From contig JACOXW010000013.1 of NCBI GenBank assembly GCA_016182205.1, forward strand, positions 1 through 59,883: a DNA stretch of 59,883 nucleotides. Reading direction: 5' to 3'. Shown piece by piece: positions 1 through 34,301 of this stretch. Position 1 is the stretch's first letter. Each line of letters opens with the position of its first letter. This stretch comes from Candidatus Levyibacteriota bacterium (GTDB taxonomy: Bacteria > Patescibacteriota > Microgenomatia > Levybacterales > UBA12049). The notes under the pieces were generated by a model. That model did no database searches, had not been told where the DNA came from, and saw only the letters and a program-made list of their open reading frames with translations. The translations under genes and the position numbers were made by a program.

Positions 1-99
1 ACGTATCCATGATTCTCTCAATCAGTTCCCCAAACGCCTTTTGTCTGGCGAAGCGGGATCCCGCTAAACGGGATGCGTTGGATTATTCTTTGCGGAAGA

Positions 100-480
100 T
101 CAGTTGGCAGGCTTGGGCTTTTCCCACTGCGTCCTGATGGACATCAGGATGATGGTGGTCAGAACACCCCCTACGACACCTCCGTACAGCATCTCGTTCC
201 TCCACGGCGGCCCGGCGATCAAGCCGATCAGACAGACGTAGGAGAAACTGAAAAAAACGCTGGCGAGGAAGAAGTAGGCGAAATGCCCCAGGTGATTGCC
301 GAAGGCCATTTGTCGCTGTGACAATGGCGGTTGTCCGGCCGCTTTGGTCATGCGCAACATCTGATCCTGACTGACCTCGGGATGCCCCCTGTAGAAATGA
401 CTCCAGAAGACCATCCCTAAGCCCATGCCAAAGGGAGCGATGACTCCCATCCAGAGAACGAACCACTGATCAAGCGACAT
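100..480 (-). CDS. hypothetical small integral membrane protein (high-GC block)
   Basis: 126-aa ORF with about 3 hydrophobic helices. AAGGAG Shine-Dalgarno (rc of 487-492) lies 6 nt upstream of the ATG. GC-rich codon usage matches neighbours 499-1643. Preferred over the overlapping + strand ORF 73-321. Confidence 0.5.
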   Translation of the reverse strand: MSLDQWFVLWMGVIAPFGMGLGMVFWSHFYRGHPEVSQDQMLRMTKAAGQPPLSQRQMAFGNHLGHFAYFFLASVFFSFSYVCLIGLIAGPPWRNEMLYGGVVGGVLTTIILMSIRTQWEKPKPAN

Positions 481-498
481 GACTAACTCCTTTCAGTG

Positions 499-1143
499 CT
501 ACTTTCGTGGTCCCAGCCTGGGATGTGCCGCCGGCGCATACTGCCTAATTCTCCTGATCCGGGAGACAAGCACACAGAAGTTGAACAGGAACAGGAACAA
601 CAACGTAAAGCTCATGACCGTCTCGGGCGAATACGGTAGGACGAGTGTACCTCCCAGACCTCCCAAAAGGAATACCAGCCTTCCAGGATAGCCCAGAAAC
701 CACCGATCGTCCCAGTTGGGGTGAATTCCCTTCTCCTCGGCCGAAGCCTTGGAGAATGAAACCAGAAACCCCAGACCGAGGGCAAGCAGACCTACGAACT
801 GCTGTTCTACGCTTGTAAAGTGCATGATGTAGACCATCGTGATGGCTATCCCGAAAATTACTTCGTTGAGCCGATCACAGAATGTGTCCAACCACGCACC
901 ATAGGCAGAAGCGGTCCCCTTAAGACGTGCCAACGGCCCGTCAAAAGCGTCAGCCAAAAACCCCACGATCAGAATCATGAGCGTAAGCGATACCGACCGT
1001 GTGGACATCAAAACGAAGCTGGCAGTCGTGACGATCACAACACCAGCCATCGTGACAACGGTGGGAGCGACACCAAGTAGCATAAGGAGACGGGCTCCCG
1101 GCTGCTTGAGGTGACGCTCGATCCACGGCATCGGACTACGCAT
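499..1143 (-). CDS. CDP-alcohol phosphatidyltransferase family protein
   Basis: Exact family signature DG-x2-AR-x8-G-x3-D-x3-D in DAFDGPLARLKGTASAYGAWLDTFCD. Polytopic membrane protein. AAGGAGG SD upstream. High-GC codon usage. Confidence 0.85.
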   Translation of the reverse strand: MRSPMPWIERHLKQPGARLLMLLGVAPTVVTMAGVVIVTTASFVLMSTRSVSLTLMILIVGFLADAFDGPLARLKGTASAYGAWLDTFCDRLNEVIFGIAITMVYIMHFTSVEQQFVGLLALGLGFLVSFSKASAEEKGIHPNWDDRWFLGYPGRLVFLLGGLGGTLVLPYSPETVMSFTLLFLFLFNFCVLVSRIRRIRQYAPAAHPRLGPRK

Positions 1144-1235
1144 AATTTCCTCCTTATCCTTTCCATGTCAAACATCTACCGCAAGATGATGGCGCAAAGA
1201 GAGAGGGCAGTCCCTCTTCACACCAACCGCCACGG

Positions 1236-1643
1236 CTATTGCTTCCGATTGTCCCAAGCGGCTTTGCGTTCCTTCCTTTCCGTAGCAGACCTCTCCCGTC
1301 TTGCCTTCTCCGCGACCTTCTCCTTGGCGTTATTGAGCAACCAGTCCACGCCGAGCGCCAGGAGCGGTGTAACCACGCTCAAAAAGCTAGGGAGCTTCAG
1401 AACGTCTGCCAGGAGCCAAGACAGGCCCGCTGCCAGGATGAGGTACAACCCGACATCAAGAATCAGATCGTTCCTCCCCTTGCTGCCCAGCATCGACAGA
1501 GTTACCAAGAGACCGACCACTCCGCCGAGCACCATTCCCATCCAGCCTTGCTGCTGAAGATGTCCGGCGCCGACGAACAAGCCGACCCAAAGGGGGACGA
1601 GATAGACTAGGGACGTTTTCAGTCCTTCTCTTTCTCGATACAT
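1236..1643 (-). CDS. hypothetical membrane protein with basic C-terminal tail (high-GC block)
   Basis: 135-aa ORF with 3-4 hydrophobic segments and a Lys/Arg/Glu-rich tail. Same strand and composition as 499-1143. Confidence 0.5.
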   Translation of the reverse strand: MYREREGLKTSLVYLVPLWVGLFVGAGHLQQQGWMGMVLGGVVGLLVTLSMLGSKGRNDLILDVGLYLILAAGLSWLLADVLKLPSFLSVVTPLLALGVDWLLNNAKEKVAEKARRERSATERKERKAAWDNRKQ

Positions 1644-2088
1644 AATGACTCCAAGTCAGTGATTTTGTATCTTCGCTCCTGCCCTAACACAGATTTCTAT
1701 GAACAATCACAGAAACTTGCGTCAAGCGAAGATGAACGGAGACCGACCAAGATTTAGGATTTAAGATATAAGATTTAAGAAAAACATGGAATCTTGATCA
1801 AACTGCGTTCATCTTCTCACAAAAGCACACCCCACTCGCATAAAGTTTTGTGAGGCAAGCCATCCGTAATTTCAAAGAGCCCTGCAAAGCAGGGTCTGGT
1901 TTCACCAGACAAGAAAGTGATGAGTATCAGATCTGAGTTTTAAGTAGCAATCACTCAATTCCCAAGCCCTGCAAAGCAGAGCGTTATGGATACTCAAAAC
2001 TAATAAGCGGATTCTATCACCAGTAAGCTGAGAAATCAAAATTATAGGATAAAGTGGACTCGAAAGGGCGCCCTGCCCACCATAACTG

Positions 2089-2162
2089 TGGCCATTAAAG
2101 GATTCGAACCTTTGACCTTTCGCATGTGAAGCGAACGCTCTAACCAACTGAGCTAAATGGCC
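2089..2162 (-). tRNA. tRNA-Val (anticodon CAC)
   Basis: Manual cloverleaf on the minus strand: acceptor GGCCATT/AATGGCC; D arm GCTC/GAGC; anticodon stem TTCGC/GCGAA with loop TTCACAT; T arm AAAGG-TTCGAAT-CCTTT; discriminator A; no encoded CCA. 74 nt. Confidence 0.9.
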
Positions 2163-5514: not shown

Positions 5515-8396
5515 ATTTTTTGGACAGAAAAAACACTACCTTCAGTAAGATTACGAACAAGCGCTTTCCTCGTTATTTCCTCTTCAAATTCCTTCGGCCA
5601 TTCAGGAAGAGTTACGTTTACGTATTCATCTAAACTTGTACCAAGCTTTTTCCTCTCCTCCTGAATTTTCCTGACGATATCCCGCGCTTCCCCTTCTTTT
5701 TTCAAAGCTTCAGTAATTGTTGTATCCAGTTCAACAACGAGTGCTCCATCTCCTTTTTTGAATCCAAGCTCTTTAATATTTAATTCATCTTTCAATACTT
5801 GTGCGAGTTTTTCCCAAAGCTTTTGAATTGCTTCAGGCCGTTTTTCTAATGGTTTGACATTTGCTTCCCCTATTACAGTAAGTTTTTGAAGTGATTGTCT
5901 TAGTTTTATATTTGCCGCTTTTCGCTGTGCATGCCCAAGTTCTACAATCTTTCTAACAATCGCCATTTCTTCGATTAATTTTAAATATTTTACTTTGATT
6001 TCTGAATTCTCTTGCGGCCAGTCGGTCAGATGCACTGATTCTTCTCCGGTGAGATTTTTATATATCTCTTCTGCCAAAAACGGCGTGATGGGAGCAAGCA
6101 TTTTGGCAAGTGTTGTCAAAACAGTATAAGTCGTCTCATAAAATGCTTGCTTGTCTTTTTCATCATCTGCAGTTGGACCAACTCTGTCTCTGCTTCTTCT
6201 GATATACCATGTGGATAAATCATTAACAAACTTTTCAACTTTTTCAATTGCTTTAATAGTGTCGTACTTTTCTAGATCTTCTGTTTCCTCTATTATTAAA
6301 CGGTTTAACAAACTTAAAATCCACTGATCTAAAACATTTTCCGAAACTTTGAACTTTGCATTTTGTACTTTGAACTTATCGATGTTTGCATAACTGACAA
6401 AGAAATTATAAACATTCCATAAAATAAGCATTGTTCCTTTTACCTGATTTCTATACTGTTCTTCCGATATTACAGTATCTTCTCCTTGAACAACCGGACT
6501 TTTCATAAGATACAATCTCAATGCGTCTGCGCCGTATTTCTCAAGCATTTCCTTTGGATCAGGGTAATTTCCGAAGTTCTTACTCATTTTTCGCCCATCC
6601 GTCCCCAAAATAACACCATTAACCAAAACATTTTTAAATGCTTCCACCTGATAGAGAGCATTTGAAATAACGTGAAGTACGTAAAACCATGCTCTGATTT
6701 GTCCTGTATACTCAACGATAAAATCCGGAGGATAAAAGTCTTCAAGTTTTTGAGATGCAAACGATTTACCCTGAGCAAAGTCGAAGGGATAATGCCTTTC
6801 ACCAAATGACGCACTTCCTGCTTCTATCCAGCTATCAAGGACTTCAGGTACCCTTCGTGCTTTTTTTTCACATTTCAAACAAGGAATAATTATTTCATCA
6901 ATTCCCGGTTTGTGTAAATCTGTAACTTTTTTTCCGCTTAAATCTTCAAGTTCCTGAATTGATCCAGGCACATACCGCTCACCACACTCACACTCCCAAA
7001 CAGGAACTGGAGAACCCCAATACCTATTGCGGGAAATATTCCAATCAGGTGCGTTTTGAAGACTTTTTAAAAACCGTCCATGTTTAAAATGAGAGGGAAC
7101 CCAATTTACGCGCTCATTGGTTTTTTTCATCTGATCTTTTAGCGTCGCTACATTCACATACCATGCATTAATAGGTGCATAATATAACCTCGTGTGACAA
7201 CGCCAACACAATGGAATATTATGAGGCAATTTCTCATCTTTATATATCAACCCGCGATCTGCCAAATCTTTATTCACTGCCTCATTTGCTTTCAAATAAT
7301 ACATTCCACCAAATTTCGGCACATCAGGTTTTATCACACCTACATCATCCAAATGCATTTCTATATGGATGTTGTTTTCCCCCATTGCTTTCAAATCTTC
7401 CTCACCGTATGCTGCAATTGTTACGACACCTGTCCCTTCATCTGCTGTTACAAAATCCCCACCGATTATTTCGAATGCTTTTTCTCCAGGAGCTATTGGA
7501 TAGTAATCATAATGCGGCTCAAACTTCAAGCCGATCAAATCCTTTCCTTCAAACTCCTCAACAATATCATGCTGAACTTGTTTCAGCATCTTCACTGTAG
7601 TCTTTGCGAGGATATAATACTCGTCTCCTTCTTTTACCTTTACATACGTCAGCTTTGGATTTACTGCCAGCGCAGGAGTGATTATTTTGTTCCATGGCGT
7701 GGTAGACCAAGCTAAAATATATGTTTTTAGTTTTTCGTTTTCAGTTTTTAGTTCGTACTTATACGTCGTTGCGACATCAATAATTTCTTTATAATTATCC
7801 GCATCCATTGCGACTTCAAAGTTGGAGATTGGTGTGGCACAATGTGGACAGTATAGAGAAACTTTCAGGCCTTTGTAGATAAGCTTCTTTTCATACATCT
7901 TTTTAAATACCCACATGACCGTTTCCATATACGGTGTGTCCCACGTTCTGTATGCATGTTCAAAATCTACCCATCTTGCTACCCGATCAACGTACCATTC
8001 CCATTCATTTGTAACTGAATCCAGGTATTTTTTGCATTCGTCTATGAATACCTTCACTCCTATTTTTTCTTCAATTTCTTTTTTCGTTTTTATACCTAGC
8101 TTTACTTCAACTTTATTTTCAACCGGCAACCCATGTCCATCCCATCCCCACACTCTTCTAACACGATATCCTTTCATAGTCCAAAATCGGGGAAAAAGAT
8201 CTTTTGCAATTGTTGTTAATAAGTGACCGTAATGCGGAAGCCCCGTAACAAAAGGCGGCCCATCGAGAAATGTCCAGGTTTTATCCTTTGGGCGGTTTTC
8301 AATAGATTTTTCAAAAGTCTTATTTTCTTTCCAGAACGAGAGAATTTCTTCTTCTAGTTTTGGAAAATCAACTTTCGGCGAAACTGGTTTGAACAT
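5511..8396 (-). CDS. ileS: isoleucyl-tRNA synthetase (type 2-like)
   Basis: HIGH-type motif PHYGH near the N-terminus and KMSKN motif. CP1 editing-domain length. N-terminus FLDGPPFVTGLPHYGH is typical of IleS. Confidence 0.95.
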   Translation of the reverse strand: MFKPVSPKVDFPKLEEEILSFWKENKTFEKSIENRPKDKTWTFLDGPPFVTGLPHYGHLLTTIAKDLFPRFWTMKGYRVRRVWGWDGHGLPVENKVEVKLGIKTKKEIEEKIGVKVFIDECKKYLDSVTNEWEWYVDRVARWVDFEHAYRTWDTPYMETVMWVFKKMYEKKLIYKGLKVSLYCPHCATPISNFEVAMDADNYKEIIDVATTYKYELKTENEKLKTYILAWSTTPWNKIITPALAVNPKLTYVKVKEGDEYYILAKTTVKMLKQVQHDIVEEFEGKDLIGLKFEPHYDYYPIAPGEKAFEIIGGDFVTADEGTGVVTIAAYGEEDLKAMGENNIHIEMHLDDVGVIKPDVPKFGGMYYLKANEAVNKDLADRGLIYKDEKLPHNIPLCWRCHTRLYYAPINAWYVNVATLKDQMKKTNERVNWVPSHFKHGRFLKSLQNAPDWNISRNRYWGSPVPVWECECGERYVPGSIQELEDLSGKKVTDLHKPGIDEIIIPCLKCEKKARRVPEVLDSWIEAGSASFGERHYPFDFAQGKSFASQKLEDFYPPDFIVEYTGQIRAWFYVLHVISNALYQVEAFKNVLVNGVILGTDGRKMSKNFGNYPDPKEMLEKYGADALRLYLMKSPVVQGEDTVISEEQYRNQVKGTMLILWNVYNFFVSYANIDKFKVQNAKFKVSENVLDQWILSLLNRLIIEETEDLEKYDTIKAIEKVEKFVNDLSTWYIRRSRDRVGPTADDEKDKQAFYETTYTVLTTLAKMLAPITPFLAEEIYKNLTGEESVHLTDWPQENSEIKVKYLKLIEEMAIVRKIVELGHAQRKAANIKLRQSLQKLTVIGEANVKPLEKRPEAIQKLWEKLAQVLKDELNIKELGFKKGDGALVVELDTTITEALKKEGEARDIVRKIQEERKKLGTSLDEYVNVTLPEWPKEFEEEITRKALVRNLTEGSVFSVQKI

Positions 8397-8438
8397 GAGT
8401 TTAATTGTAGCTGAAACTGAAGGCTAGTTCAAGCATGT

Positions 8439-8467
8439 TTGCTTTAAATTTCATACAGGTGTATACT
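8439..8467 (+). promoter_or_regulatory. sigma70-like promoter TTGCTT-N17-TATACT, leaderless geometry
   Basis: -35 at 8439-8444 and -10 at 8462-8467. The ATG of the next ORF is at 8475, 7 nt after the -10. No SD. Confidence 0.4.
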
Positions 8468-8474
8468 ATAAGAC

Positions 8475-9557
8475 ATGTATCACACTGTTTTCTCACCGAT
8501 GTTACCTATAAAATCGTTTTATCTTTATCTAACGTTGACACTTTTGACGCTTTTTACCATAATGACTGATACAATCACCTATCCGGGATTTCTGAAAAAA
8601 CATGTTCTACTAGACACAAATATTCTTTTCATTTTATTTCTTGTAACCAGCGTATACATTTTTTTTCTTCCGGGAAAGATAGATTTCAGCACATTACAAC
8701 CGATAAAAAAACTTAATTCTTTCATCTTACTGCCGGTTATAGCTGTTTTCACTTTTATTTTTACCTTTGCAGATTTCTTCCTCTATCCTAATTTTACCTT
8801 CAGCACTTTCCACATTCATTACTCACAGTTTCTTTATCTGCTATTAATAAGCACCGGACTTGCTCTAGTAACCATTGACAGACAGTTATTGAAAAGAAGA
8901 AAACATGCTTTAATTTTTTCCGGTGCGTTCTTCCTGCTTTTCATCGGAATTTGTATCTGGCTTTGGCCCAACGGAGCCTTTTTTGAGTTGAGCAAGGAAG
9001 ACCGACTTTTTGAAAATTTACAGTTTTTATTTTTCTCACTATCCACTATTCTTGCCGCACTTATAACCAAACATTTTTTCAACAAAGATCTAAAGCACAT
9101 AGCTATCCTCTTTTTTTTCATAACAATGTTTTTGTTTTTTGTTTCGGGAGAAGAAATAGCATGGGGACAACGGATTTTCCATATCGAATCCCCTGCTATC
9201 ATGAAGGAGAACAACACCCAGCATGAGCTAACACTGCACAACCTAAAAGCTATAAACCAATACCAATATCTTTTATACATGTTACTCGGCGCCTATGGAG
9301 CATTTTCATGGATAATTTCCAGCTTCTTTCCGTACAAGAAAATACGGGACTTCCTTCACAATATTTCAATCCCATGGTTTGCCGCACCGTATTTTTTGCC
9401 GATTTTTCTTTTCTATCTATACGTCAACTTTATAGGCGGTAAACGCTGGGAATGGCAAGAATTTTCAGAACTGCTGTTGGCACTAGGAATTACAATCTTT
9501 CTTCTCGTTACTTATATAGCATATAAACCTACTAAATTGAAATTACTTACCGGGTAA
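8475..9557 (+). CDS. hypothetical polytopic membrane protein
   Basis: 360-aa ORF, very hydrophobic (about 9-10 helices), host-like AT-rich codon usage. No motif recognised. Confidence 0.5.
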   Translation: MYHTVFSPMLPIKSFYLYLTLTLLTLFTIMTDTITYPGFLKKHVLLDTNILFILFLVTSVYIFFLPGKIDFSTLQPIKKLNSFILLPVIAVFTFIFTFADFFLYPNFTFSTFHIHYSQFLYLLLISTGLALVTIDRQLLKRRKHALIFSGAFFLLFIGICIWLWPNGAFFELSKEDRLFENLQFLFFSLSTILAALITKHFFNKDLKHIAILFFFITMFLFFVSGEEIAWGQRIFHIESPAIMKENNTQHELTLHNLKAINQYQYLLYMLLGAYGAFSWIISSFFPYKKIRDFLHNISIPWFAAPYFLPIFLFYLYVNFIGGKRWEWQEFSELLLALGITIFLLVTYIAYKPTKLKLLTG

Positions 9558-9588
9558 GCCCGCTCAGTTTCTGATATACTATTTTTCT

Positions 9589-9924
9589 ATGGACGAGAAA
9601 CAACAGGAATTACAGATTGAAGATCTTAATGTCGGAAAAGGACAGGAAGTAAAAGAAGGAGATACGGTAGTTATGCATTACAAAGGTTATTTGGAAGACG
9701 GAACTCCTTTTGATTCCTCATATGATCGAAAAGAACCCTTTGAAACCAAAATCGGTGTAGGCTATGTCATAAAAGGCTGGGATATGGGGGTACCGGGAAT
9801 GAAAGTCGGCGGCAAAAGAAAATTGACCATTCCTTACCGTTTTGGTTACGGAAAATATGGAACGGGAAATATACCTGGTTTTGCAACACTGATATTTGAG
9901 GTGGAGCTTCTTAAAATTCTTTAA
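9589..9924 (+). CDS. FKBP-type peptidyl-prolyl cis-trans isomerase
   Basis: GDTVVMHYKGYLEDGTPFDSS...GVGYVIKGWDMGVPGMKVGGKRKLTIP...LIFEVELL is a canonical FKBP_C domain. Confidence 0.9.
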   Translation: MDEKQQELQIEDLNVGKGQEVKEGDTVVMHYKGYLEDGTPFDSSYDRKEPFETKIGVGYVIKGWDMGVPGMKVGGKRKLTIPYRFGYGKYGTGNIPGFATLIFEVELLKIL

Positions 9925-9937
9925 AGACCCCACAAAG

Positions 9938-10330
9938 CTAGACTTTTTTCCAGACGCCATAGTAGCCAAATCCTCCTGCCAAAAGCCCATGCAAAAATAC
10001 ATCTACAAATATCATGTTATTTAACGCATGTATCTGATAACTCCAGAGGCCCAAAACTAAAGCTGCAAGGTGAATGCAAAATGCACCAAAGCTTAAAGTA
10101 TAAAGAATGGGTCGATCTTTTACGTTTCTTGTCGCCCAGTAAATATATGATGTTCCCAAAAGTGTGACACCCAGAAGCTGAGCAACAAAAATTCCCGCCG
10201 TATTTAACTCAGGCCCATATGGTGCCATTAACGCAGCAGGCATTACTACCAGTCCGAATCCGCCAAACCCGGCAAATATCGCGTTGATAAGAAATACTGT
10301 TGAAAGTTTCACAATCTCACCCCCTCTCAA
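9938..10330 (-). CDS. hypothetical 4-TM membrane protein
   Basis: 130-aa hydrophobic ORF with host-like composition. Confidence 0.45.
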   Translation of the reverse strand: MRGGEIVKLSTVFLINAIFAGFGGFGLVVMPAALMAPYGPELNTAGIFVAQLLGVTLLGTSYIYWATRNVKDRPILYTLSFGAFCIHLAALVLGLWSYQIHALNNMIFVDVFLHGLLAGGFGYYGVWKKV

Positions 10331-10748
10331 TCATTTTTACCTCGTAGATCTCCCATGGATTTTTGTTAAGATCAGAATATCGAATCCAAGTCGGAACTAC
10401 TTTAAAATATGTCATTCCTTCTTTCGTTTCCCACCTTTGCGCCTCTGGGTTTTTCTCAAAATATATTTTCTTATAGTCCTCTTTTTCTTTTCCTTCCAAT
10501 TCGTAGGCTTTCCCTTCATACTGAACAGTAATATCTTCATCCCACCCGATAACCAACGAAACATTATTATTATGTTTGATGTTTTTGTACTTTCTTGATG
10601 AGGAAAAGGTGTCAAAGATAATCTTAAGAGTTTGCGTCTGCCCGAATTCCAAAACCGCGGATTGTGAAGTATTTTTAGGAGTTACTGTAGATAAAACCGC
10701 AAGCTTTTGCTTTTTAATGAATTCCAGAATTATCGCCTTCTGATCCAT
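10317..10748 (-). CDS. pyridoxamine 5'-phosphate oxidase-like FMN-binding split-barrel protein
   Basis: The size and the pattern KLAVLSTV...AVLEF...VSLVIGWDE...VQYEG are typical of the PNPOx-like family. Confidence 0.65.
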   Translation of the reverse strand: MDQKAIILEFIKKQKLAVLSTVTPKNTSQSAVLEFGQTQTLKIIFDTFSSSRKYKNIKHNNNVSLVIGWDEDITVQYEGKAYELEGKEKEDYKKIYFEKNPEAQRWETKEGMTYFKVVPTWIRYSDLNKNPWEIYEVKMIERG

Positions 10749-10769
10749 ACGATGATTATAGCAAAAAAC

Positions 10770-10802
10770 TTAATTCCTCTGCCTTAGAAATGCGGGGATA
10801 TC
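10770..10802 (-). repeat. orphan copy of the ftsZ 3' end (encodes [10 protein letters not shown]-stop, preceded by a stop codon)
   Basis: 26/33 nt identical to 11449-11481, the real ftsZ end. Same reading frame. Six of the 7 differences do not change the amino acid or stop. Confidence 0.75.
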
Positions 10803-10831
10803 TTAGATAAGTCTAGTTTTATAATCTCGGT

Positions 10832-10860
10832 TTGCTTAAAAAGTTAAATGTTTGTATAAT
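10832..10860 (+). promoter_or_regulatory. sigma70-like promoter TTGCTT-N17-TATAAT driving the TA cassette (leaderless)
   Basis: -35 at 10832-10837 and -10 at 10855-10860. ATG at 10867, 6 nt after the -10. No SD. Confidence 0.5.
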
Positions 10861-10866
10861 TGATAT

Positions 10867-10992
10867 ATGACAAATGTAGCAGTTAAAAAATACGAAAAAA
10901 ATAACCCTAAGAAAGCTAAAATAATTAAGAAGGCAGTAAATAAAGGTGTAAAACAATATGAAGAAACCTTCAGAAGACTTGCCGCAGCCTAA
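10867..10992 (+). CDS. putative antitoxin (41 aa, below the ORF-track cutoff)
   Basis: Hand translation: [41 protein letters not shown]-stop. Lies immediately upstream of and overlapping the Doc-family ORF. A consensus promoter is placed for leaderless initiation. Confidence 0.5.
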   Translation: MTNVAVKKYEKNNPKKAKIIKKAVNKGVKQYEETFRRLAAA

Positions 10993-11452
10993 GTGGTTAA
11001 AAATAGATGATTTTGAGTTTATCTGTTTTAATCTTGCTAGAGAATTAATGTCGTTTGGCGAACCAATTCCTGACTACTCAACTAGAGATAACTCACTATT
11101 GGAATCATCACTCGCTGCTCCAAGAAATACATTCTATAATACCGATAATCCAACATTAGTCGATTTAACGGCAGTTTTATTTTATTCATTGATAAAAAAT
11201 CATCCTTTTGCTAATGGTAATAAGAGAATTGCCGTAATGACAATATTAATCTTTCTTCGATTAAATGATAAGTGGCTTGATATTGCCCCAATCCTCCTAT
11301 ATCAATTGGCTGTGACAACTGCCAATTCTTTACCAAACGAAAGAGATAAAGTTTTAAATGAATTTAAAAGAATGTTTTATGACTATATTGTGGATTATGA
11401 GGAATTTGAAAGTAAAATGGAAGAGATATCAAAAAAATTAGATAATAACTAG
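10958..11452 (+). CDS. doc: Doc (death-on-curing) / Fic family toxin
   Basis: Doc-type Fic motif [11 protein letters not shown] (H-x-F-x-[DN]-[AG]-N-K-R). About 160 aa. The true start may be downstream of 10958. The stop overlaps the ftsZ stop in the palindrome CTAG (11449-11452). Confidence 0.85.
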
Positions 11453-11481
11453 TTCCTCTGTCGTAAGAATGCGGGGATTTC
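11449..11481 (-). repeat. functional ftsZ 3' end ([10 protein letters not shown]-stop), partner of repeat 10770-10802
   Basis: See 10770-10802. The two copies are direct repeats flanking the TA cassette. Confidence 0.75.
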
Positions 11482-12564
11482 AAATACATCTTCGTCCGGT
11501 TCTTCCTGCTTTTCTGGTGTTGCGGTTGGTTGAGAAACCGGTGTTGTACCCGCCTGTTGCTGAGGCTGGGGTTTTGGAAGAGGTGTTACAAACTCTCTGA
11601 GTTTTTGTTTGGTCTGATCAAATCCTGTTGCGATAACAGTTATCTTCATTTGATCACGCATAGTCTCATCGATGGTCGCGCCGAAAATAATATTTGCGTC
11701 CGGATCGGCAGCACCCGAGATGATTTTTGATGCTTCATCCACTTCACTCATGGTCAGATCAAGTCCTCCCATGATATTGAAAAGCACTCCCCGCGCGCCT
11801 TCCATGGAAATTTCCAAAAGCGGTGATGCGATAGCAGCTCTGGCGGCAGTCTGGGCTCTGTTTTCACCAACTCCTACTCCTATACCCATTAGCGCTGACC
11901 CAGCATTCGTCATGATAGAGCGAACGTCTGCAAAATCGACATTGATAAGTCCCGGCATGGTAATAAGATCTGAAATGCCTTGCACCCCTTGAGAAAGTAC
12001 CGAGTCTGCTACTTTGAATGCTTCAAGAAGTGACAGCTTTTTATCTACCACGTCCAAAATTCTCTGATTTGGAATGACGATGAGTGTATCGACTTTGTCC
12101 CGAAGATTCTCAATTCCGTCTTCTGCTGCTACCATCCTTCGAGTTCCTTCAAATGAAAACGGTTTGGTAACAACTGCTATGGTTAAAGCTCCTACTTCTT
12201 TGGCGATACGCGCAATCACAGGTGTCGCGCCGGTACCTGTACCGCCGCCCATCCCGGCAGCAAGAAACACCATGTCAGATCCTTCAAGCATGTTTTTAAT
12301 TTTTTCTCCAGATTCTTCAGCTGCTTGTCTTCCCATATCAGGATCTCCGCCTGACCCAAGCCCTTTGGTGAGGTTTTCTCCAATCTGCACCTTAGTTGCG
12401 GCATGACCCAAAATCAATGCTTGCGCGTCAGTATTTACTGCGACGAAATCAACTCCCTGAATTTGACTTTGGGTAATCATGGAATTTAGGGCGTTATTTC
12501 CTCCTCCTCCAACACCCATCACGCGGATTTTTGCAATGCTGGTTGTTTGCGGTTTTATAAGCAT
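11449..12564 (-). CDS. ftsZ: cell division protein FtsZ
   Basis: Tubulin signature [20 protein letters not shown], and C-terminal FtsA-binding peptide EIPAFLRQ. Confidence 0.97.
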
Positions 12565-12631: not shown

Positions 12632-14026
12632 CTACGGGATAAACGATTTTATAAATGAAAGAATTTTTGAGGGTAAATTTCCCATTTTCATATTTTTGGG
12701 AAGCCCCGGTAACGAAAACCCAAACGGTGCCCCAACCGGAGAAGACTCCGATTTTTCTCCATACATGGCAAGACCCACAACAGCACCAAATGCCGGATCT
12801 TGTATTTCATCAATAATGCCTTTAATCTTTTGTGGATACCCAACTCTTACAGGCATCGCAAGTGTTCTTTTGGCTGCATCCTGTATCCCGACTGTCTTTG
12901 CTCCACCTCCGCATATAACAAGTCCGGCAGGTGTTTGACCGGCATAACCGCTTTTTTTCACTTCCAGTCCTACCATTGTAAATATCTCATTCAGACGCGG
13001 CCTTATGATTCCATCCACCAATGTTTTTTTGGAAACCTTCCGAACTTCCTCGGGAAGTCCTAAGAAACTTAAGTCTACTTCATCAGTTTTACTCGCCATT
13101 GCCTCGACTGCTTTCTCGTTTCCCGCTTCATGTAATCCTGAAACTTCTTCAGGATTAAGTTGCCTTCTGGCTGTCGCGTTGGAAAGGAATAATTTTATCT
13201 TTTCAGCAGATTCCAAAGAGATTCGAAGACCGATAGCCAAATCATTGGTAATATGACGGGCACCGATAGGGAGGACGCAGGAGTAAGCCACAGATCCTTC
13301 TACATATACTGATATATCGGTAGTACCAGCTCCTATGTCTACCAGGACCACACCTAGTTCCTTCTCGGTATCGGAAAGAACCGACATACTACTTCCGTAG
13401 CCTGAAAAAACAATACTTTCAACATCCACTCCTACTTCGGAAAGAGCCTTCTCAAGGTTTTTCACAGATGTTGTATTCGCAGTGATAATATGGGTATCTA
13501 CCTCAAGTCTAACTCCTGTCATGCCGATCGGATCTCTTATGCCCTCCTGTCCGTCTACAGTGTAATTTCTGGGCAACACATGAATAACTTCACGGGTAGA
13601 GGAAAGTGAGACTGCTTTCGCCGCATCTATTACACGAATAAGGTCTGTTGCGTTTATCTCTCCATCCGCAGATGATACAGCTACTACTCCTTTGGAATTA
13701 AGACTTTCAATATGCCCACCGCCTATAGAAACGATAACGCGAGAAGCTGAAAAGCCTGCCATACGTTCGGCTGCTTCCAGTGAGGCGTTGATAGCGGAAA
13801 CCGCATCTTCTATATCAACAATCTGTCCTTTCCGTACTCCTTGCGATTTCACTTCCGATACACCAAGGACGTTGATATATTCGTTTACTTTCGCAATGAG
13901 GGTAACGACTTTTGAGGTTCCAATATCAATACAAACAATAATTTTACCATCGCTTGAGCGAGTTGCATTGTTCATATACACACCATTGTACACCATAATC
14001 GTAATTGTGTCTCTATTTGAACACAA
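12632..14026 (-). CDS. ftsA: cell division protein FtsA
   Basis: Actin-fold phosphate motifs CIDIGTSKV and DIGAGTTDISV. Position upstream of ftsZ. The real start is probably the internal Met at about 13975 (MNNATRSS...). Confidence 0.93.
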   Translation of the reverse strand: MCSNRDTITIMVYNGVYMNNATRSSDGKIIVCIDIGTSKVVTLIAKVNEYINVLGVSEVKSQGVRKGQIVDIEDAVSAINASLEAAERMAGFSASRVIVSIGGGHIESLNSKGVVAVSSADGEINATDLIRVIDAAKAVSLSSTREVIHVLPRNYTVDGQEGIRDPIGMTGVRLEVDTHIITANTTSVKNLEKALSEVGVDVESIVFSGYGSSMSVLSDTEKELGVVLVDIGAGTTDISVYVEGSVAYSCVLPIGARHITNDLAIGLRISLESAEKIKLFLSNATARRQLNPEEVSGLHEAGNEKAVEAMASKTDEVDLSFLGLPEEVRKVSKKTLVDGIIRPRLNEIFTMVGLEVKKSGYAGQTPAGLVICGGGAKTVGIQDAAKRTLAMPVRVGYPQKIKGIIDEIQDPAFGAVVGLAMYGEKSESSPVGAPFGFSLPGLPKNMKMGNLPSKILSFIKSFIP

Positions 14027-28811: not shown

Positions 28812-30002
28812 TTAGATATTTTTTTCTAGAGCTTTTTTAACCGCTCCAAATTCATCCCACGGTTCTTCGCCATTTCCATAATTCATCGATTTCTCATGCG
28901 CTTTCCCTGTTGTGATTACTAAATCGCCTTTTTGCGCTATAGAGATGGCTTTGGCAATTGCCTCTTGTCTGTTGGGAATAATAAGAAGCGTTCCGTTTTC
29001 CATGCGTTCTTGCGCATCTTTAATACCATTTATAATGTCTTTCATAATGGAATCAATTGATTCCGTACGCGGATCCTCAGACGTCAGAACAACAACATCT
29101 GCATATTTGGCAGAAATAGCTCCCATTTTGGGACGTTTTGTGAAATCTCTTTGTCCCGCACTGCCAAAAACGTGAATGATTCGCTTTTTTACCAGCGGCC
29201 GCAGCGCGCTTAAAACCTGCTCAAAAGAATTCGGCGTATGCGCAAAATCTATCATCACCGTAAAATCCTTTTTATAAACTATTTCTTCACGCCCAATCGG
29301 CGCCTCAAACGTCTCCACTCCTTTTCTAATGTCTGCATCGGAAATACCCAACTGCTTACAGACACTGACAGCAGCAAGACAGTTATAGGTATTGAACTCT
29401 CCGATGAGTTTTGTTTTGAAAGGAAAAGTATCAGTACTTATGTCTGATCCTTTGCTTTTTCCATATGTAATTACTGCTTTTTTCTTTTTCAGTAATTTAT
29501 TTATCAAATCATAGGATTCGTCGTCTTTATTTACAATCGCCAAATCTGCCCGCTGTAAGAGTTTTGCCTTTGCTTTTACATAATTTTTATACGTCTTATG
29601 ATAATCTAAATGCTCATGCGTGATATTGGTAATAACGCCAATGTTAAAGCGCACACCGTAGACTCTAAATTGATCCAATCCATGCGAGGTAACTTCCAGT
29701 ACGAGATATTCTGAAGCTTGTGATGCTTTTTTTATAAATCCCTGAAGCGGCCAGGAAGCGGGATTTGTGACATGAAACCCGACATCATATTCTTTTCCGC
29801 CAATAATAGCCCCAACTGAGGAGATCATTGATGCTTTCTTTCCAGACGTCTTGAGTATGTGATAGATCAAACTGACAGTCGTTGTCTTACCATCCGTACC
29901 GGTAACGCCTATCACTACCAATTTCCGGGATGGGAAACGGTAATAGATATTGGCCAAAAGGGCAGTAGCTAGGTGATATTGATTTTTTATCCACTGCCAC
30001 AT
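28812..30002 (-). CDS. murE: MurE-type Mur ligase lacking the N-terminal (UDP-binding) domain
   Basis: P-loop VIGVTGTDGKTTT already at residue ~32. DFAHTPNSFEQVL (MurE-type DxAHTP). C-terminal TGKAHE. Only 396 aa. Confidence 0.8.
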   Translation of the reverse strand: MWQWIKNQYHLATALLANIYYRFPSRKLVVIGVTGTDGKTTTVSLIYHILKTSGKKASMISSVGAIIGGKEYDVGFHVTNPASWPLQGFIKKASQASEYLVLEVTSHGLDQFRVYGVRFNIGVITNITHEHLDYHKTYKNYVKAKAKLLQRADLAIVNKDDESYDLINKLLKKKKAVITYGKSKGSDISTDTFPFKTKLIGEFNTYNCLAAVSVCKQLGISDADIRKGVETFEAPIGREEIVYKKDFTVMIDFAHTPNSFEQVLSALRPLVKKRIIHVFGSAGQRDFTKRPKMGAISAKYADVVVLTSEDPRTESIDSIMKDIINGIKDAQERMENGTLLIIPNRQEAIAKAISIAQKGDLVITTGKAHEKSMNYGNGEEPWDEFGAVKKALEKNI

Positions 30003-30060
30003 AGGTGTATTATACTTGTTTTTCTTTCAATTCACCATCTAGAAAACACCCTATAAGAAT

Positions 30061-30090
30061 TTGCTTGTCCCTGCATATTTCTGCTATAAT
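30061..30090 (+). promoter_or_regulatory. sigma70-like promoter TTGCTT-N18-TATAAT facing the foreign operon
   Basis: -35 at 30061-30066 and -10 at 30085-30090, in AT-rich host-like DNA about 195 nt upstream of the GTG at 30285. Confidence 0.4.
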
Positions 30091-30168
30091 GCCATCGCTT
30101 TCAGCAATTCTCACCAAGACGACGCGTCCTGGAATTTACAGAGGATTTTTGAAAGTGATCTTTGACAA

Positions 30169-30179
30169 GTGAGAGAGGA
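30169..30179 (+). repeat. left copy of an 11-bp perfect inverted repeat GTGAGAGAGGA
   Basis: The reverse complement occurs at 34236-34246. The pair brackets the three island genes. Confidence 0.35.
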
Positions 30180-30284
30180 ACTCTTGGTGGAGGAAGACTC
30201 ACGTCAACCGAAATCAAGAGAAACTTAAGAACAAGGAGGTAGAAGACATACTACCTGCGTATCTACAAGCGAAAGGAGTAGATC

Positions 30285-31406
30285 GTGTCGCAAAAACACC
30301 CGTGGGGAATTCGTCTCCGTGACAGGCTGAAAGAGTGGGGGCCAGAACATGGATACCCTCAGCTCTCAATTCTAGGAAGGGAGCTGGGAATTCCCGATTC
30401 ACCGTGGAACGATATCCGTTCTGCCGGTGCAATTATCGCCACCCCGAAAGATGCGTATGCGCGCATTTTCTGGAGGACTGGCCTTTCGGAAGCCGACCCC
30501 CGTTCTATACCACCTCGAGTCAGAGCCTTCCCCAAAGGAAGTAGCAGGGAAGAACCACGAGCGTGGTCTCAGAGCCAATGGCAAGAGTGGGTGAGGAAGG
30601 AATCAAGCAAATACAGCCGCGGCTCAGGTGTACAACCCGAAGCCACAGACACTTCCAAACCTTTACTCTCCCCTCCAACCGAGCCCGTCATGCCACAAGC
30701 GGAGCCACAACTACCTGTCCATGAGACAGGCTTTGTTGACGAGCTCCTCGGTCTGTTCGGCAAGCACATCGCGCGTGCAGCAGCTCCACATATTGTCTCC
30801 GAAATCGAGCAGGCGCTTAAACGCCAATTCGATGAGCGAGAACGGTTTGTGGAAGTAGCAACGCACGCAGTCGCCGAGGTAGTACCGAGTCTGCAGGCAG
30901 TCATCGAGAGAGTGCGAAGCGAGGGCGAACAAACCCAAACACAAGCATTCCCGACTGACGCCGTCGCAGACGCGGTCGCCAAAAGCCTCATCCAGTACCT
31001 GGAGGAGCAGGAAGTTCCTAACCGCCAGGGGAAACCGACCCTTTTGAGCATAGGAGACCTGGCTGAGGAGTTGCATAAGCAACTTAGCGAAGCTGTTGAG
31101 GCAAATGAAGGAGATCAACGAGATCTTCTCACCTCATACGGCATCGAGCTCAGCAGACTACTCCCATTACTAAAGCGACTGCTCAGCAAACAAGAAGAGG
31201 AGGCGATGTCCCACGACACAGCAAGCAGGTTGGATCGTCAACTCGGAGTGATTCTCAAACGGGCGCTGAATGGTACCCCTGAGGATCGCGATGAGTTCAC
31301 CCGTCGATACGGCCGGCTCGGAAGGCACGTTCCCGCACTGGAAGTGCTCACACGAGACGACCGTGAAGGTCGCGAGAACGCAGTAGCGTTACTTGCAAGG
31401 AGCTAG
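30285..31406 (+). CDS. island gene 1: hypothetical protein with N-terminal HTH-like segment, Pro/Ser-rich linker and helical C-terminal domain
   Basis: GTG start with GGAG SD (30275-30278). 373 aa. N-terminal IRLRDRLKEWGPEHGYPQLSILGRELGIPDSPWNDI resembles an XRE-type HTH (tentative). No catalytic motif seen. Confidence 0.7.
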   Translation: MSQKHPWGIRLRDRLKEWGPEHGYPQLSILGRELGIPDSPWNDIRSAGAIIATPKDAYARIFWRTGLSEADPRSIPPRVRAFPKGSSREEPRAWSQSQWQEWVRKESSKYSRGSGVQPEATDTSKPLLSPPTEPVMPQAEPQLPVHETGFVDELLGLFGKHIARAAAPHIVSEIEQALKRQFDERERFVEVATHAVAEVVPSLQAVIERVRSEGEQTQTQAFPTDAVADAVAKSLIQYLEEQEVPNRQGKPTLLSIGDLAEELHKQLSEAVEANEGDQRDLLTSYGIELSRLLPLLKRLLSKQEEEAMSHDTASRLDRQLGVILKRALNGTPEDRDEFTRRYGRLGRHVPALEVLTRDDREGRENAVALLARS

Positions 31407-31408
31407 GC

Positions 31409-33355
31409 ATGACCAGCTATACAGGCAAGACCTCGATCAGCCCAGCCCATGCCATCATGCACCTCGCACGACTACAGGTGGGCGTGGTACCGGTGGCTGA
31501 AGAGGCTATCGACAATGGCGTCGATGCCGAAGCTACGACCATCTGGCACGTGATCGAGCCAGGCCGGATGATGATCATCGATAACGGCCACGGCATGCTG
31601 TCGACCATGTTGGCAGCTGATGCTGACCTGCTGCAGGAGCTCTGGCAGAAGAAGCTGTCAGGAGAACTGCCAGCGGACTTTGACGTCCGTTCACAGATTT
31701 CCCCAGCGTCGCGCCGGAGTCTGCAGTGGATGCAGGAGTCAATCGGGTTCAGCGCAAAGCTTCCTGATGAGCGTGATACGCTTGGGACAAAGGGTCTCGG
31801 CGGCACGGTCTCGTGGAGAAGTGTAGCGCGGCGAGCTGTTTGGACAACTCGTCCCAACGACGAGCTGGCCGCAGCTATGCCAGATCTCGCTTCGCCGACT
31901 CCTGTCTGGCGCATGGAACCACCCACTGCTGAACAGCTTGCGCGAGGAGATCTTGACTACTCAATCGTCGAGGTTTCTCCGAACGCTTTGCAAAACCCGT
32001 ATGGTGGCGTTCTCGCCTCAGGCACAGCAGTCGAAATCATGGATCTTGACCCGGAAGCAGAGCGGGGCCTTCGGCCAATGGCGTTTGCGGAAGCCTACCG
32101 TATGCGCTATGGAGGCTTTGTGCGCGCTGGTCGGATCACGATTATCATCGTCGACCGCGTCACTGAAGAGGGTCGCAGAACACCAAATGGACGGGAGATT
32201 CTCGTTCAGCCCTCTCAGTATAGAGGAGCTGTCATCCTCGAGACCGAAATACGCGTTGGCAAGTACACCGCGCGCATTGAGCTCTTCTATGATCCCAAGG
32301 GACGCGGCACCTATCCGTTCCTTCGTCGCCAAGGGATCGATCTCAAGACCACCATGGCAGTGCTCGTCTCAGAGCTCCCGCTTCTTCGCGGTCCACTCAT
32401 TAGTGGAAAGCTTTCAGGTTTCGTCGCGTTTCCCAACGCGCCGGATACCGAGGCGCCCTGGACCACGGACAAGCTCAAGCCGCTGGATTCTCCTCTGCGC
32501 AGCCAATGGGAGCGAGCAGTTGCTTCGCTCATCCCAGATCTTGAGGCTGCCATGGAGGCGATGGACGAGAAAGTCCGAAGCCGACAGATGGAGACAGTGA
32601 CCAAGCAGGTCACTGATGCTGCACTTGAGGCGATCGGGGATTTGGAAGCCTATCAAGGCATCCTGCCTAATCTCGTACGAAATCGCACATCAGGCAAGAG
32701 CAAGAGCAAGAAGAAGCGCCAACCGCGGCCCTTGGATAAGGTGATCGCCGTCGTTCGCAACGAACATAACATGGGCGTTGCCGGCGCGATTCTGGAACTC
32801 CACCGCGGTATAACATGCGTGAACCGGTTGGTGACCGGACCAGGCGGAGTTATCTCCTTTGGTAAGCAGCCTCCTGGCCGCTACCGGATGAAGTTGACTC
32901 CACCAAATGGGGCAAAAGTCCGCGCTGGTGAGGACACCTTCGTCTTCAATTTAAGCCCCAACCAACCGGGCTGCCGGATTCCATTCCATGTGGTAACCGG
33001 TGAACCGGCTCCACAACGGCCAGGCAGGCTCCCTAAGCTGGAGCTTTGGCTCCACCCATGGGAGAATGTTGGCGAACCATTCCGTGCTGATCGGCTCGCC
33101 AGATACGGCCAAGTCGAGATCAACGAGCAGCACGACGCAATCGCAGAGGCATATCGCCGAAGCGATGAAGAGCGTGTGGCCACACTGACTGCGCTTTACA
33201 CCAGTATGGCGCTTGCTGGTCATGCCTTCCATGGCACACCAACATCAGTGGTCAATGCGCAGGCTGCAAGCCTTTTCAACCGTATGCTGGACATCACACT
33301 CCAGGATATGGAGACAAGGCAGCGAGCGCAGGCTGCTCGCCGAGGCCGGAAATAA
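31409..33355 (+). CDS. island gene 2: GHKL-superfamily (MORC/MutL/HATPase_c_3-like) ATPase with C-terminal beta-sandwich-like module
   Basis: Bergerat-fold motifs in order: E32-x3-N36-x2-D39-A40 (EEAIDNGVDA); D58-x-G60-x-G62 (IIDNGHGM); G126-TK-G-L-G-G132; GTAVEIMDL. AAGGAG SD. Start is 2 nt after the gene-1 stop. Residues ~445-520 follow a CarboxypepD_reg-like pattern (GVAGAILEL...GPGGVISFGKQPPGRYRMKL). Confidence 0.8.
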   Translation: MTSYTGKTSISPAHAIMHLARLQVGVVPVAEEAIDNGVDAEATTIWHVIEPGRMMIIDNGHGMLSTMLAADADLLQELWQKKLSGELPADFDVRSQISPASRRSLQWMQESIGFSAKLPDERDTLGTKGLGGTVSWRSVARRAVWTTRPNDELAAAMPDLASPTPVWRMEPPTAEQLARGDLDYSIVEVSPNALQNPYGGVLASGTAVEIMDLDPEAERGLRPMAFAEAYRMRYGGFVRAGRITIIIVDRVTEEGRRTPNGREILVQPSQYRGAVILETEIRVGKYTARIELFYDPKGRGTYPFLRRQGIDLKTTMAVLVSELPLLRGPLISGKLSGFVAFPNAPDTEAPWTTDKLKPLDSPLRSQWERAVASLIPDLEAAMEAMDEKVRSRQMETVTKQVTDAALEAIGDLEAYQGILPNLVRNRTSGKSKSKKKRQPRPLDKVIAVVRNEHNMGVAGAILELHRGITCVNRLVTGPGGVISFGKQPPGRYRMKLTPPNGAKVRAGEDTFVFNLSPNQPGCRIPFHVVTGEPAPQRPGRLPKLELWLHPWENVGEPFRADRLARYGQVEINEQHDAIAEAYRRSDEERVATLTALYTSMALAGHAFHGTPTSVVNAQAASLFNRMLDITLQDMETRQRAQAARRGRK

Positions 33356-33378
33356 CGTATCCGCCATCCGGGAAGGAG

Positions 33379-33410
33379 GTTGAGGATCCATCCTCAACTT
33401 TCCTTTTCCC
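33379..33410 (+). terminator. intrinsic-terminator-like hairpin between island genes 2 and 3
   Basis: Perfect 8-bp stem GTTGAGGA-tcca-TCCTCAAC (33379-33398), extendable by G-U pairs, followed by CTTTCCTTTTCCC. Confidence 0.4.
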
Positions 33411-33432
33411 GAGTGTAAGAGGGAGGGTCCAG

Positions 33433-34113
33433 ATGGACCAGGTAGACCCAGTACAACAGGCCCGACAGGTCATCGCCAACATGGAAAGCATGATCGGTGG
33501 CTTGAAGGTTCCCCGAGATCAACTGAATCAGCAGATACGGCGACTGGAGGACTCGCGCCGGCGTCTACAGCAGCAGCTACGGGATCTCGAACACGCGAAG
33601 CGATCAGATCCTCCAGATGTCCTCAAGATCGTACGCGAGACTACTGCGTACATGGTCGAAGTCGCGGCTGAGCTAGAGCAACTCTATCAGCCACCGGCTG
33701 GAACTCGCCGTCGGGGTACTTCTCGTGCGCCGGCGTCTGTAGGTGAGAATCCGATACCGCCAAGCGGTGGTCCGGCAGGTGATACACCACCGGTAATTCA
33801 CCTGCGAGAAATTGCCCCTGTCCCTCGGAAGGTGCTTTCCCTTTTGGCTAAAGGGAGTACCCCTCCAGCAACACTGGATGAAGCCATCCTGGCTGCCTAC
33901 CCTGAAGGGCTCAGTACACCCGAAAAGCTTCTGAAAGGAGGTCTCTCGGGAGCGATCACAGGCCTGATTCGGCTTCGCAATAATCCAAGCGAGGTGGAAT
34001 CGGCGCCGACGCGCCTTCGCCAGCTCTACAACGAGCTTGGTCTTCCAGGTCGTTGGGAAGAGGTCGAAACAGCGCTTCGACAATGGGGTGTTCTCAAGGA
34101 CTCAGCCGCGTAG
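33433..34113 (+). CDS. island gene 3: hypothetical coiled-coil protein with Pro/Gly/Arg-rich linker and helical C-terminal domain
   Basis: GGAGGG SD. 226 aa. Heptad-like N-terminus (QLNQQIRRLEDSRRRLQQQLRDLEHAKR). No enzymatic motif recognised. Confidence 0.65.
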   Translation: MDQVDPVQQARQVIANMESMIGGLKVPRDQLNQQIRRLEDSRRRLQQQLRDLEHAKRSDPPDVLKIVRETTAYMVEVAAELEQLYQPPAGTRRRGTSRAPASVGENPIPPSGGPAGDTPPVIHLREIAPVPRKVLSLLAKGSTPPATLDEAILAAYPEGLSTPEKLLKGGLSGAITGLIRLRNNPSEVESAPTRLRQLYNELGLPGRWEEVETALRQWGVLKDSAA

Positions 34114-34128
34114 CGGCAAACAAGAGGG

Positions 34129-34164
34129 AGCCTGTGATGGTTCAAAGGCGAGCTGTCACAGGCT
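34129..34164 (+). terminator. hairpin downstream of island gene 3 (possible terminator, no U-tract)
   Basis: 9-bp perfect stem AGCCTGTGA / TCACAGGCT with an 18-nt loop (3 further pairs with G-U), 16 nt after the stop. Confidence 0.3.
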
Positions 34165-34235
34165 ATTCCTCGAGAAAGAACTCGAAATCGTAAGCCAATT
34201 TGCAGGCTTATACCTTTCATTTTCTTTCTCATCCA

Positions 34236-34246
34236 TCCTCTCTCAC
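34236..34246 (-). repeat. right copy of the 11-bp inverted repeat (TCCTCTCTCAC on + strand)
   Basis: Reverse complement of 30169-30179. Confidence 0.35.
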
Positions 34247-34301
34247 TGTTTTTTCTTACGGTTTAAGATTTTTCTTGAAAAGTAAGGAGAAATACGAAAA
34301 G

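Follow-up and report, generated by a model that had tools for sequence, protein, structure and literature searches.

How do the last codons of ftsZ come to stand twice, some 0.7 kb apart, with a Doc-family toxin gene between the two copies? This arrangement is found in a 59.9-kb stretch from the genome of an uncultivated Levybacteria (the window, meaning the whole stretch analysed). The cassette between the copies is probably a miniature, integrase-less element resembling a cis-mobilizable element (CIME), which occupies the codons of the FtsZ C-terminal peptide as its attachment site and is likely served by a Xer-like integrase acting in trans. The functional end of ftsZ (T1, attL-like; GAA ATC CCC GCA TTC TTA CGA CAG AGG AAC TAG) comprises its last ten codons plus stop, and direct reading and a repeat finder agree with an earlier note on this DNA that these recur 679 nt away (start to start) as a copy (T2, attR-like; GAT ATC CCC GCA TTT CTA AGG CAG AGG AAT TAA) orphaned by the stop codon directly before it. 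As that note had also stated, the copies are identical at 26 of 33 nt, one of the seven differences exchanges glutamate and aspartate, and the other six are silent (five synonymous changes and TAG versus TAA). When a 59.9-kb sequence was simulated 200 times under a first-order Markov model, no match to the 33-mer was better than 23/33; the repeat is therefore beyond chance, and its substitution pattern is of the coding type. An independent Logan assembly (L143, SRR12113420) is 100% identical to the window over 1815 nt that cover the end of the PNPOx gene, T2, the cassette, T1 and part of ftsZ, and thus spans both junctions. Because the simulations never reach 26/33 and L143 is identical, the occupied structure is real and not an assembly artefact. 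Between T1 and T2 lie only a promoter-like site, a 41-aa open reading frame (ORF) and the Doc gene, whose stop shares the CTAG at bases 11449-11452 with the ftsZ stop, again as described before. The pair thus forms direct repeats in register at the 3' end of ftsZ, the arrangement by which a site-specific integrative element is recognized.

The earlier note had suggested looking for an empty site in relatives, and one exists. Exact look-up of the window FtsZ protein retrieved two independently assembled contigs that lack the cassette and belong to the species and sample series of the window: L141, from the Logan assembly of SRR12113384, and L142, from that of SRR12113383. In both, the flanks agree with the window at 99.6-99.9% of nucleotides. 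In L141 the PNPOx gene lies 21 nt after the ftsZ stop; the contig matches the window at 99.86% over 3516 nt up to the ftsZ tail (5 mismatches) and at 99.64% over 824 nt from T2 onwards. L142 ends 13 nt into the empty junction. When the sites are aligned, the empty ftsZ end reads GAAATCCCCGCATTCTTAAGGCAGAGGAATTAA, then gtttttt; T1 reads GAAATCCCCGCATTCTTACGACAGAGGAACTAG, then ttattat; and T2 reads GATATCCCCGCATTTCTAAGGCAGAGGAATTAA, then gtttttt. From position 17 on, T2 agrees in every letter with the end of ftsZ at the empty site and with what follows it; positions 19-33 of T1 (CGACAGAGGAACTAG) are unlike the empty allele and arrived with the cassette. The empty site is therefore T1(1-18) joined to T2(17-33), that is, a recombinant of both repeats, which supports the earlier proposal that the cassette entered within the 3' end of ftsZ and brought a replacement tail. 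Occupied and empty alleles encode the same FtsZ protein. The event that separates them, whether insertion or excision, was conservative, in register and confined to the 33-nt tail, since ftsZ contains no foreign stretch or donor tract. Relative to the empty allele, the demonstrably cassette-derived part of the present ftsZ is its last five codons only. Occupied and empty alleles coexist in one sample series, which indicates ongoing activity of the element. The PNPOx homologues of L137-L140 (77-80% identical) are not beside ftsZ, are accompanied by no tail and provide no empty site.

At 29.6%, the guanine-plus-cytosine (GC) content of the cassette is below those of the window (40.6%) and of ftsZ (46.9%). 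A search for the same cassette beside other ftsZ alleles, also advised by the earlier note, located it in L081, L084/85, L086-91 and L136, which represent at least four other lineages; GCA_964419005.1 is one of the cassette-bearing genomes. Doc is 80-90% identical among the cassette-bearing loci, and FtsZ is 68-75% identical among them and to the window. Between genomes, the ftsZ beside the cassette is saturated at synonymous sites, far above the synonymous divergence (dS) of 0.7-1.7 for Doc; identity at third positions is 0.35-0.51 for ftsZ and 0.59-0.71 for Doc; and between L081 and L136 the cassette is 86% identical in nucleotides, compared with 78-79% for ftsZ and ftsA. The window FtsZ is nearer to those of L003, L004, L001 and L002 (77-83%), which are without the Doc cassette, than to those of the cassette-bearing loci (74-75%). 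In L084/85, L086-91 and L136 the 41-aa ORF and Doc run towards ftsZ, and the stops of Doc and ftsZ overlap; L081 has a 128-aa ORF in between. Genes on the far side vary by locus and include PNPOx, EamA, PIF1 helicase, TIR protein and methyltransferase genes, and similarity among cassette copies starts at the -10 box, about 15 nt before the 41-aa ORF. The base composition, the divergence of Doc relative to ftsZ and the varied contexts thus show the cassette to be foreign and to have moved between lineages, with the ftsZ tail as its repeated destination.

Table 1. Features of the ftsZ locus in the window and arrangement of related loci (T, ftsZ tail copy; slashes separate successive segments)
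Feature or locus	Position	Strand	Description
ftsA	12632-14026	minus	
ftsZ	11449-12564	minus	target gene; 371-aa FtsZ with Tubulin and FtsZ_C domains
T1	11449-11481	minus	attL-like; functional ftsZ end, last 10 codons plus stop
Predicted attL core, 32 bp	11458-11489	minus	ATGTATTTGAAAT / CCCCGC / ATTCTTACGACAG (13-6-13)
Cassette, unique part	10803-11448	plus	646 bp; 679 bp with one tail copy included
Doc-family toxin gene	10958-11452	plus	164 aa; stop overlaps ftsZ stop
41-aa ORF	10867-10992	plus	basic, putative antitoxin; 35-nt overlap with Doc start
Promoter-like site	10832-10860	plus	-35 TTGCTT 10832-10837, 17-nt spacer, -10 TATAAT 10855-10860
Predicted attR core, 32 bp	10779-10810	minus	TTATCTAAGATAT / CCCCGC / ATTTCTAAGGCAG
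T2	10770-10802	minus	attR-like orphan tail copy; in-frame TAA directly before
PNPOx-family gene	10317-10748	minus	original downstream neighbour of ftsZ according to the empty allele
L136	second tail at 719		ftsZ / T / Doc, 41-aa ORF, TIR-domain gene / T
L084	second tail at 2975		ftsZ / T / Doc, ORF, PIF1-type helicase / T
L081	closing tail at 502		ftsZ / T / promoterless 128-aa ORF / T / Doc, ORF, methyltransferase, helicase / T
L133			cassette away from ftsZ; decayed tail (QIPAFLR*KD*) abuts Doc stop
L003			555-bp non-Doc unit bounded by tails; 157-aa ORF with hydrophobic N-terminus
L006			three direct tails, two non-Doc units
L002	7842-7874	inverted	intact orphan tail 1.7 kb downstream of ftsZ
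L170-L173			ftsZ / T / integrase, three ORFs, Phage_CRI-type Rep, NYN / decayed orphan tail with common left arm

Integrases occupy the same place in related Microgenomates. In L007, tblastn with E. coli XerD detects a 340-aa tyrosine recombinase that starts 130 nt after the ftsZ stop and whose homologues carry a precomputed PF00589 assignment. The identical protein is encoded by the 5.3-kb element of L170-L173, where the gene for isoleucyl-tRNA synthetase (IleRS) lies further downstream. The only informative contig in a scan of IMG/VR with FtsZ, L147, carries a more distant ftsZ and, 135 nt after it, an integrase of 41% identity, and another IMG/VR contig, L144, encodes a 68%-identical integrase between two tails. 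The L007-type integrase is Xer-like but far under the Xer cut-offs (108 vs 329.6 bits for XerD, 124 vs 220 for XerA), scores 76.4 bits against the integron-integrase model TIGR02249 (cut-off 265) and is at most 26% identical to any integrase in GenBank phages and PLSDB plasmids. In L144 (1-8300), tails at 99 and 6015 flank a 5.9-kb integrase element that is followed by a second, 29%-identical tyrosine integrase; one of the tails retains extra ftsZ-like codons, and no ftsZ is present within 15.5 kb.

The left arm of the predicted attR core is not ftsZ sequence. Its common form, yCTGTCyTATAAAT, is found at the orphan sites of L171, L006 (twice), L136, L144, L084 and L081, so that the Doc-bearing L084, L081 and L136 have the same attR arm type as the integrase-bearing L171. 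Read across the 6-bp CCCCGC, the arm nearly repeats ATTTyTnAGACAG (codons A-F-L-R-Q) in inverted form. Over 12 orphan sites, one arm matches the reverse complement of the other at a mean of 7.1 of 13 positions (8-10 in eight of them), and arm registers shifted by 1-4 nt give mean matches of 2.8-4.8. The in-frame stop that precedes most orphan tails falls inside this AT-rich arm. In this the orphan sites have the arm-spacer-arm layout that simple tyrosine-recombinase sites show.

These data suggest a mechanism in which the codons of the FtsZ C-terminal peptide (I-P-A-F-L-R-Q...) would serve as the attachment site. A conservative, in-register exchange in the 33-nt tail would set the cassette between the body of ftsZ and its original tail; the tail copy borne by the cassette would now complete ftsZ, leaving the FtsZ protein unchanged, and the original tail would remain as an untranslated orphan before the PNPOx gene. 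A member of the Xer-like tyrosine integrase family encoded directly downstream of ftsZ in related Microgenomates would likely catalyse this exchange in trans. Its substrate would be a circular cassette with an attP-like site made up of the left arm, CCCCGC and the tail mimic that abuts the Doc stop, and the predicted circular junction is TTATCTAAGATATCCCCGCATT(T/C)(C/T)TACGACAGAGGAACTAG. Within the 13-6-13 core, the spacer CCCCGC and the right arm would be ftsZ codons and the left arm, on the element side, a near-inverted copy. The Doc/41-aa ORF pair would probably act as an addiction module that stabilizes the inserted cassette.

Several observations weigh against this mechanism. The 679-bp cassette has no recombinase gene of its own, integrases being encoded by the related L007, L170-L173 and L147, and none was recognized in the window, where 24 ORFs were searched with Pfam (spread over the window and including nearly all those between 83 and 12564) and the others were screened for motifs and with XerD and gamma-delta resolvase as tblastn queries. 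Scans of IMG/VR revealed no circular form or free attP; the attP-type pattern gave five chance matches there, without the rest of the tail. The left arm in the window (TTATCTAAGATAT) belongs to a divergent subtype of the common arm, TTATCTnAGATAT, present also in L002. The toxin and antitoxin activities of the pair are inferred from family membership and gene arrangement only. Finally, comparison with the empty allele places the exchange at a TA between mismatches (tail positions 16-19). A 13-6-13 tyrosine-recombinase site is expected to cross over inside its spacer, here CCCCGC (positions 6-11), which lies 6-7 bp to the left of this TA. L141 could be other than the immediate partner allele, the enzyme could cut elsewhere and tolerate heterology, or the event in the window could have taken another route, for example a serine recombinase or host recombination.

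Host recombination would require no dedicated enzyme: the cassette would enter by DNA uptake and RecA-type or microhomology recombination at the 33-nt tail, and the empty allele would arise by deletion between the tails. An exchange at a TA flanked by mismatches, outside the predicted spacer, is compatible with this route, as is a window in which no integrase is seen. However, homology would favour the 11-nt identical run ATCCCCGCATT and not TA, and 33 nt at 79% identity are a very poor RecA substrate. The route also leaves unexplained the conserved non-ftsZ left arm and the dyad of the orphan sites, the integrase-bearing elements with the same bounding repeats and the repeated in-register outcome across many lineages, and we regard it as unlikely. 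A long homologous recombination anchored in ftsZ is ruled out by the 99.86% identity of ftsZ to the empty allele up to the tail, and target-site duplication by a transposase is ruled out by the seven differences, in a coding pattern, over a repeat of 33 nt.

An enzyme of a different kind might instead have acted, either a serine recombinase with a 2-bp TA crossover or a heterology-tolerant tyrosine recombinase working at positions 12-18 or 18-24. Mapping of the exchange as a single event restricts the crossover to TA, and direct reading reveals a short second dyad, ATTTCT/AGAAAT, around positions 18-24. However, dyad symmetry around TA is poor (4/13 by hand comparison), and tblastn with gamma-delta resolvase found no serine recombinase in the loci searched. 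The neighbouring Xer-like integrase family would moreover have to be unrelated to the cassette, yet the attR arms of the Doc-bearing loci are of the type found in L171. We regard such an enzyme, too, as unlikely. Vertical inheritance, with the toxin-antitoxin pair as an old resident beside ftsZ and the orphan tail as an immobile local duplication, would account for cassettes adjoining ftsZ in several related genomes. It is contradicted by the empty allele with 99.9% identical flanks and disfavoured by a cassette that is a GC outlier with dS far below that of ftsZ, by genomes with and without the Doc cassette that interleave by FtsZ identity, and by T1/T2 synonymous differences such as are expected for the ends of different ftsZ alleles. 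We give it very little credence.

The Doc assignment is supported by matches to PF02661 (50.3 bits, cut-off 24, E=5e-13) and TIGR01550 DOC_P1 (57.5 bits, cut-off 38.65), and residues 82-90, HPFANGNKR, conform to the Doc-type motif HxFx(D/N)(A/G)NKR. Its twelve closest homologues (P0001-P0012, 76-100% identical) form a tight group in which all proteins are 164 aa long. Compared with homologues of about 146-150 aa, this group has a C-terminal extension of about 16 aa that is seen only in these twelve and ends exactly at the tail. Five of the seven homologues examined for context are at ftsZ; those of L133 and L134 are elsewhere. The more distant Doc proteins returned by a metagenome scan with Doc (at most 63% identity, about 146-150 aa) include none at ftsZ and none with a tail. 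A scan of IMG/VR with Doc gave no match, and the protein is at most 39% identical to anything in GenBank phages and PLSDB plasmids. The 41-aa ORF is present in every cassette copy and under purifying selection (nonsynonymous divergence, dN, 0-0.16; dS 0.3-2.4); it has no Pfam, NCBIfam or PADLOC match and no detectable similarity to Phd or other antitoxin families. Rfam gave no match over 10000-12000. What the earlier note called a consensus promoter indeed has a perfect -10 box, which other cassette copies keep, mostly as TGnTATAAT, and which is followed 6 nt downstream by the ATG, a leaderless-type arrangement; the -35 box is weak, matching at 3/6 positions only, and a stricter promoter scan did not list the site. 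The cassette resembles Phd-Doc of phage P1, a type II toxin-antitoxin system, in the Doc-type Fic fold and motif of its toxin and in having a small upstream gene that overlaps the toxin start, but the upstream ORF here is just 41 aa and without detectable likeness to Phd, and the toxin carries the C-terminal extension.

Further orphan tails, found by a six-frame motif scan and a degenerate nucleotide scan, bound larger or unrelated units. The Doc cassette is a small representative of a broader range of elements at this site, some of which encode a tyrosine integrase. In L133 the cassette keeps a decayed tail although it is away from ftsZ, which indicates that the tail travels with the cassette. 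The 128-aa ORF of L081 sits exactly between two tails. In L006 the first unit consists of def and a 173-aa ORF, and the second of a split DNA-alkylation-repair gene and three ORFs. The first gene starts 2-3 nt after the ftsZ stop in both L006 (def, 6152-6160) and L081 (128-aa ORF, 5908-5911), and these first units may therefore be expressed by ftsZ read-through. The inverted tail of L002, separated from ftsZ by a membrane-protein gene and a class IV aminotransferase gene, is not accounted for by simple integration; its left arm is of the same subtype as that of T2 in the window. A different pair, an AbrB/SpoVT-type antitoxin and a 134-aa Doc, lies directly downstream of ftsZ and on the same strand in a Levyibacteriota genome (L010, 6154-6770), where no second tail was detected. 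In L086, whose genome carries a 90%-identical Doc cassette, ftsA and ftsZ are separated by about 3 kb (6690-9660) with three extra genes (480, 231 and 105 aa) that have no Pfam matches on record; such a split of the ftsA/ftsZ pair is unusual.

ICESt1/ICESt3 at fda exemplify integrative elements at the 3' end of a housekeeping gene. CIMEs and accretion arrays of integrative elements at such ends are reviewed in PMC5704250, in which the term ftsZ occurs 0 times. As in CIMEs, which are integrase-less elements that retain attL and attR, the cassette keeps both sites and is devoid of integration and transfer genes; tandem accretion at one site and frequent toxin-antitoxin cargo are further likenesses. 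CIMEs arise by decay of larger integrative elements and are mobilized by an element with a shared att site; here, larger Doc-bearing versions exist (L136, L084 and L081), and the integrase element of L171 has an attR arm of the same type. Unlike the reviewed elements, the cassette targets the codons of the FtsZ C-terminal peptide in Patescibacteria, measures only 679 bp and consists of a toxin-antitoxin pair alone, with no conjugative helper known; no helper element is seen in this genome, of which the window was searched. In the literature searched, ftsZ is nowhere described as an attachment site.

Integrative mobile elements exploiting Xer (IMEX) and the pdif modules of Acinetobacter plasmids are small, often carry toxin-antitoxin genes, are bounded by sites with two arms around a 6-bp spacer and use a tyrosine recombinase in trans. 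The cassette is like them in size, cargo, short arm-6-arm bounding sites and proposed trans recombinase. It differs in that its site is protein-coding ftsZ and not a dif-type site served by host XerC/D or XerS/H/A, and in that the associated recombinase is encoded inside related elements and is far under the Xer equivalog cut-offs. In integrons, short gene cassettes, many with just one gene, follow one another in arrays with a recombination site between them, and some units at ftsZ are similarly promoterless and co-oriented with the upstream gene (the 128-aa ORF of L081 and def of L006). However, there is no IntI/attI platform here, the sites are not attC-like, no integrase is found beside the arrays in L006 or the window, and the Doc cassette has its own promoter and the opposite orientation, all of which set it apart from integron cassettes.

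More tentatively, and with doubt prevailing, the FtsZ C-terminal peptide codons may represent a lineage-wide integration platform in Microgenomates (Candidate Phyla Radiation), with dedicated integrases and integron-like gene capture. The integrases might recognize a site of 32 bp, one half of it held constant by selection on the peptide that binds FtsA, and integrase-less cassettes with site mimics might be captured, stacked downstream of ftsZ and exchanged between species. The cargo of such a platform would comprise toxin-antitoxin pairs, defence-type genes (TIR, helicase and methyltransferase) and single accessory genes. The FtsZ C-terminal peptide binds FtsA. Because this peptide is conserved at the protein level, the target stays recognizable across hosts whose ftsZ is saturated at synonymous sites. 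That an element enters the 3' end of a conserved gene and supplies it with a new end is already known; new here are the ftsZ target, the host group, the uncharacterized integrase family and the unusually small cassette with toxin-antitoxin genes only. To our knowledge, the mobile elements of this uncultivated, reduced-genome lineage are poorly known, and with attB defined, attP deduced and an integrase as candidate, targeted insertion in Patescibacteria would have a natural starting point. The toxin operon, convergent with ftsZ and overlapping it at the stops, also raises the question of an effect on ftsZ expression.

Elsewhere in the window, a GC-rich island (30000-34300; 52-57% GC versus about 39% nearby) lies within the cell-wall/division gene cluster, between a Mur ligase gene (28812-30002) and the 3' end of a penicillin-binding protein (PBP)/ftsI gene. 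It contains three plus-strand ORFs of 373, 648 (with a weak HATPase_c_3 match) and 226 aa, and has no PADLOC match and no flanking direct repeats. The adjoining PBP transpeptidase gene (34302-35941) is apparently split into ORFs of 448 and 97 aa with a TAATG overlap near 34595, which could reflect a frameshift, a real split or a sequencing error. The first 2 kb of the window (1-2162) are 51-54% GC, contain ORFs of unusual composition and abut a tRNA-Val gene (2088-2162, minus strand); they may represent a tRNA-linked island truncated where the contig ends.

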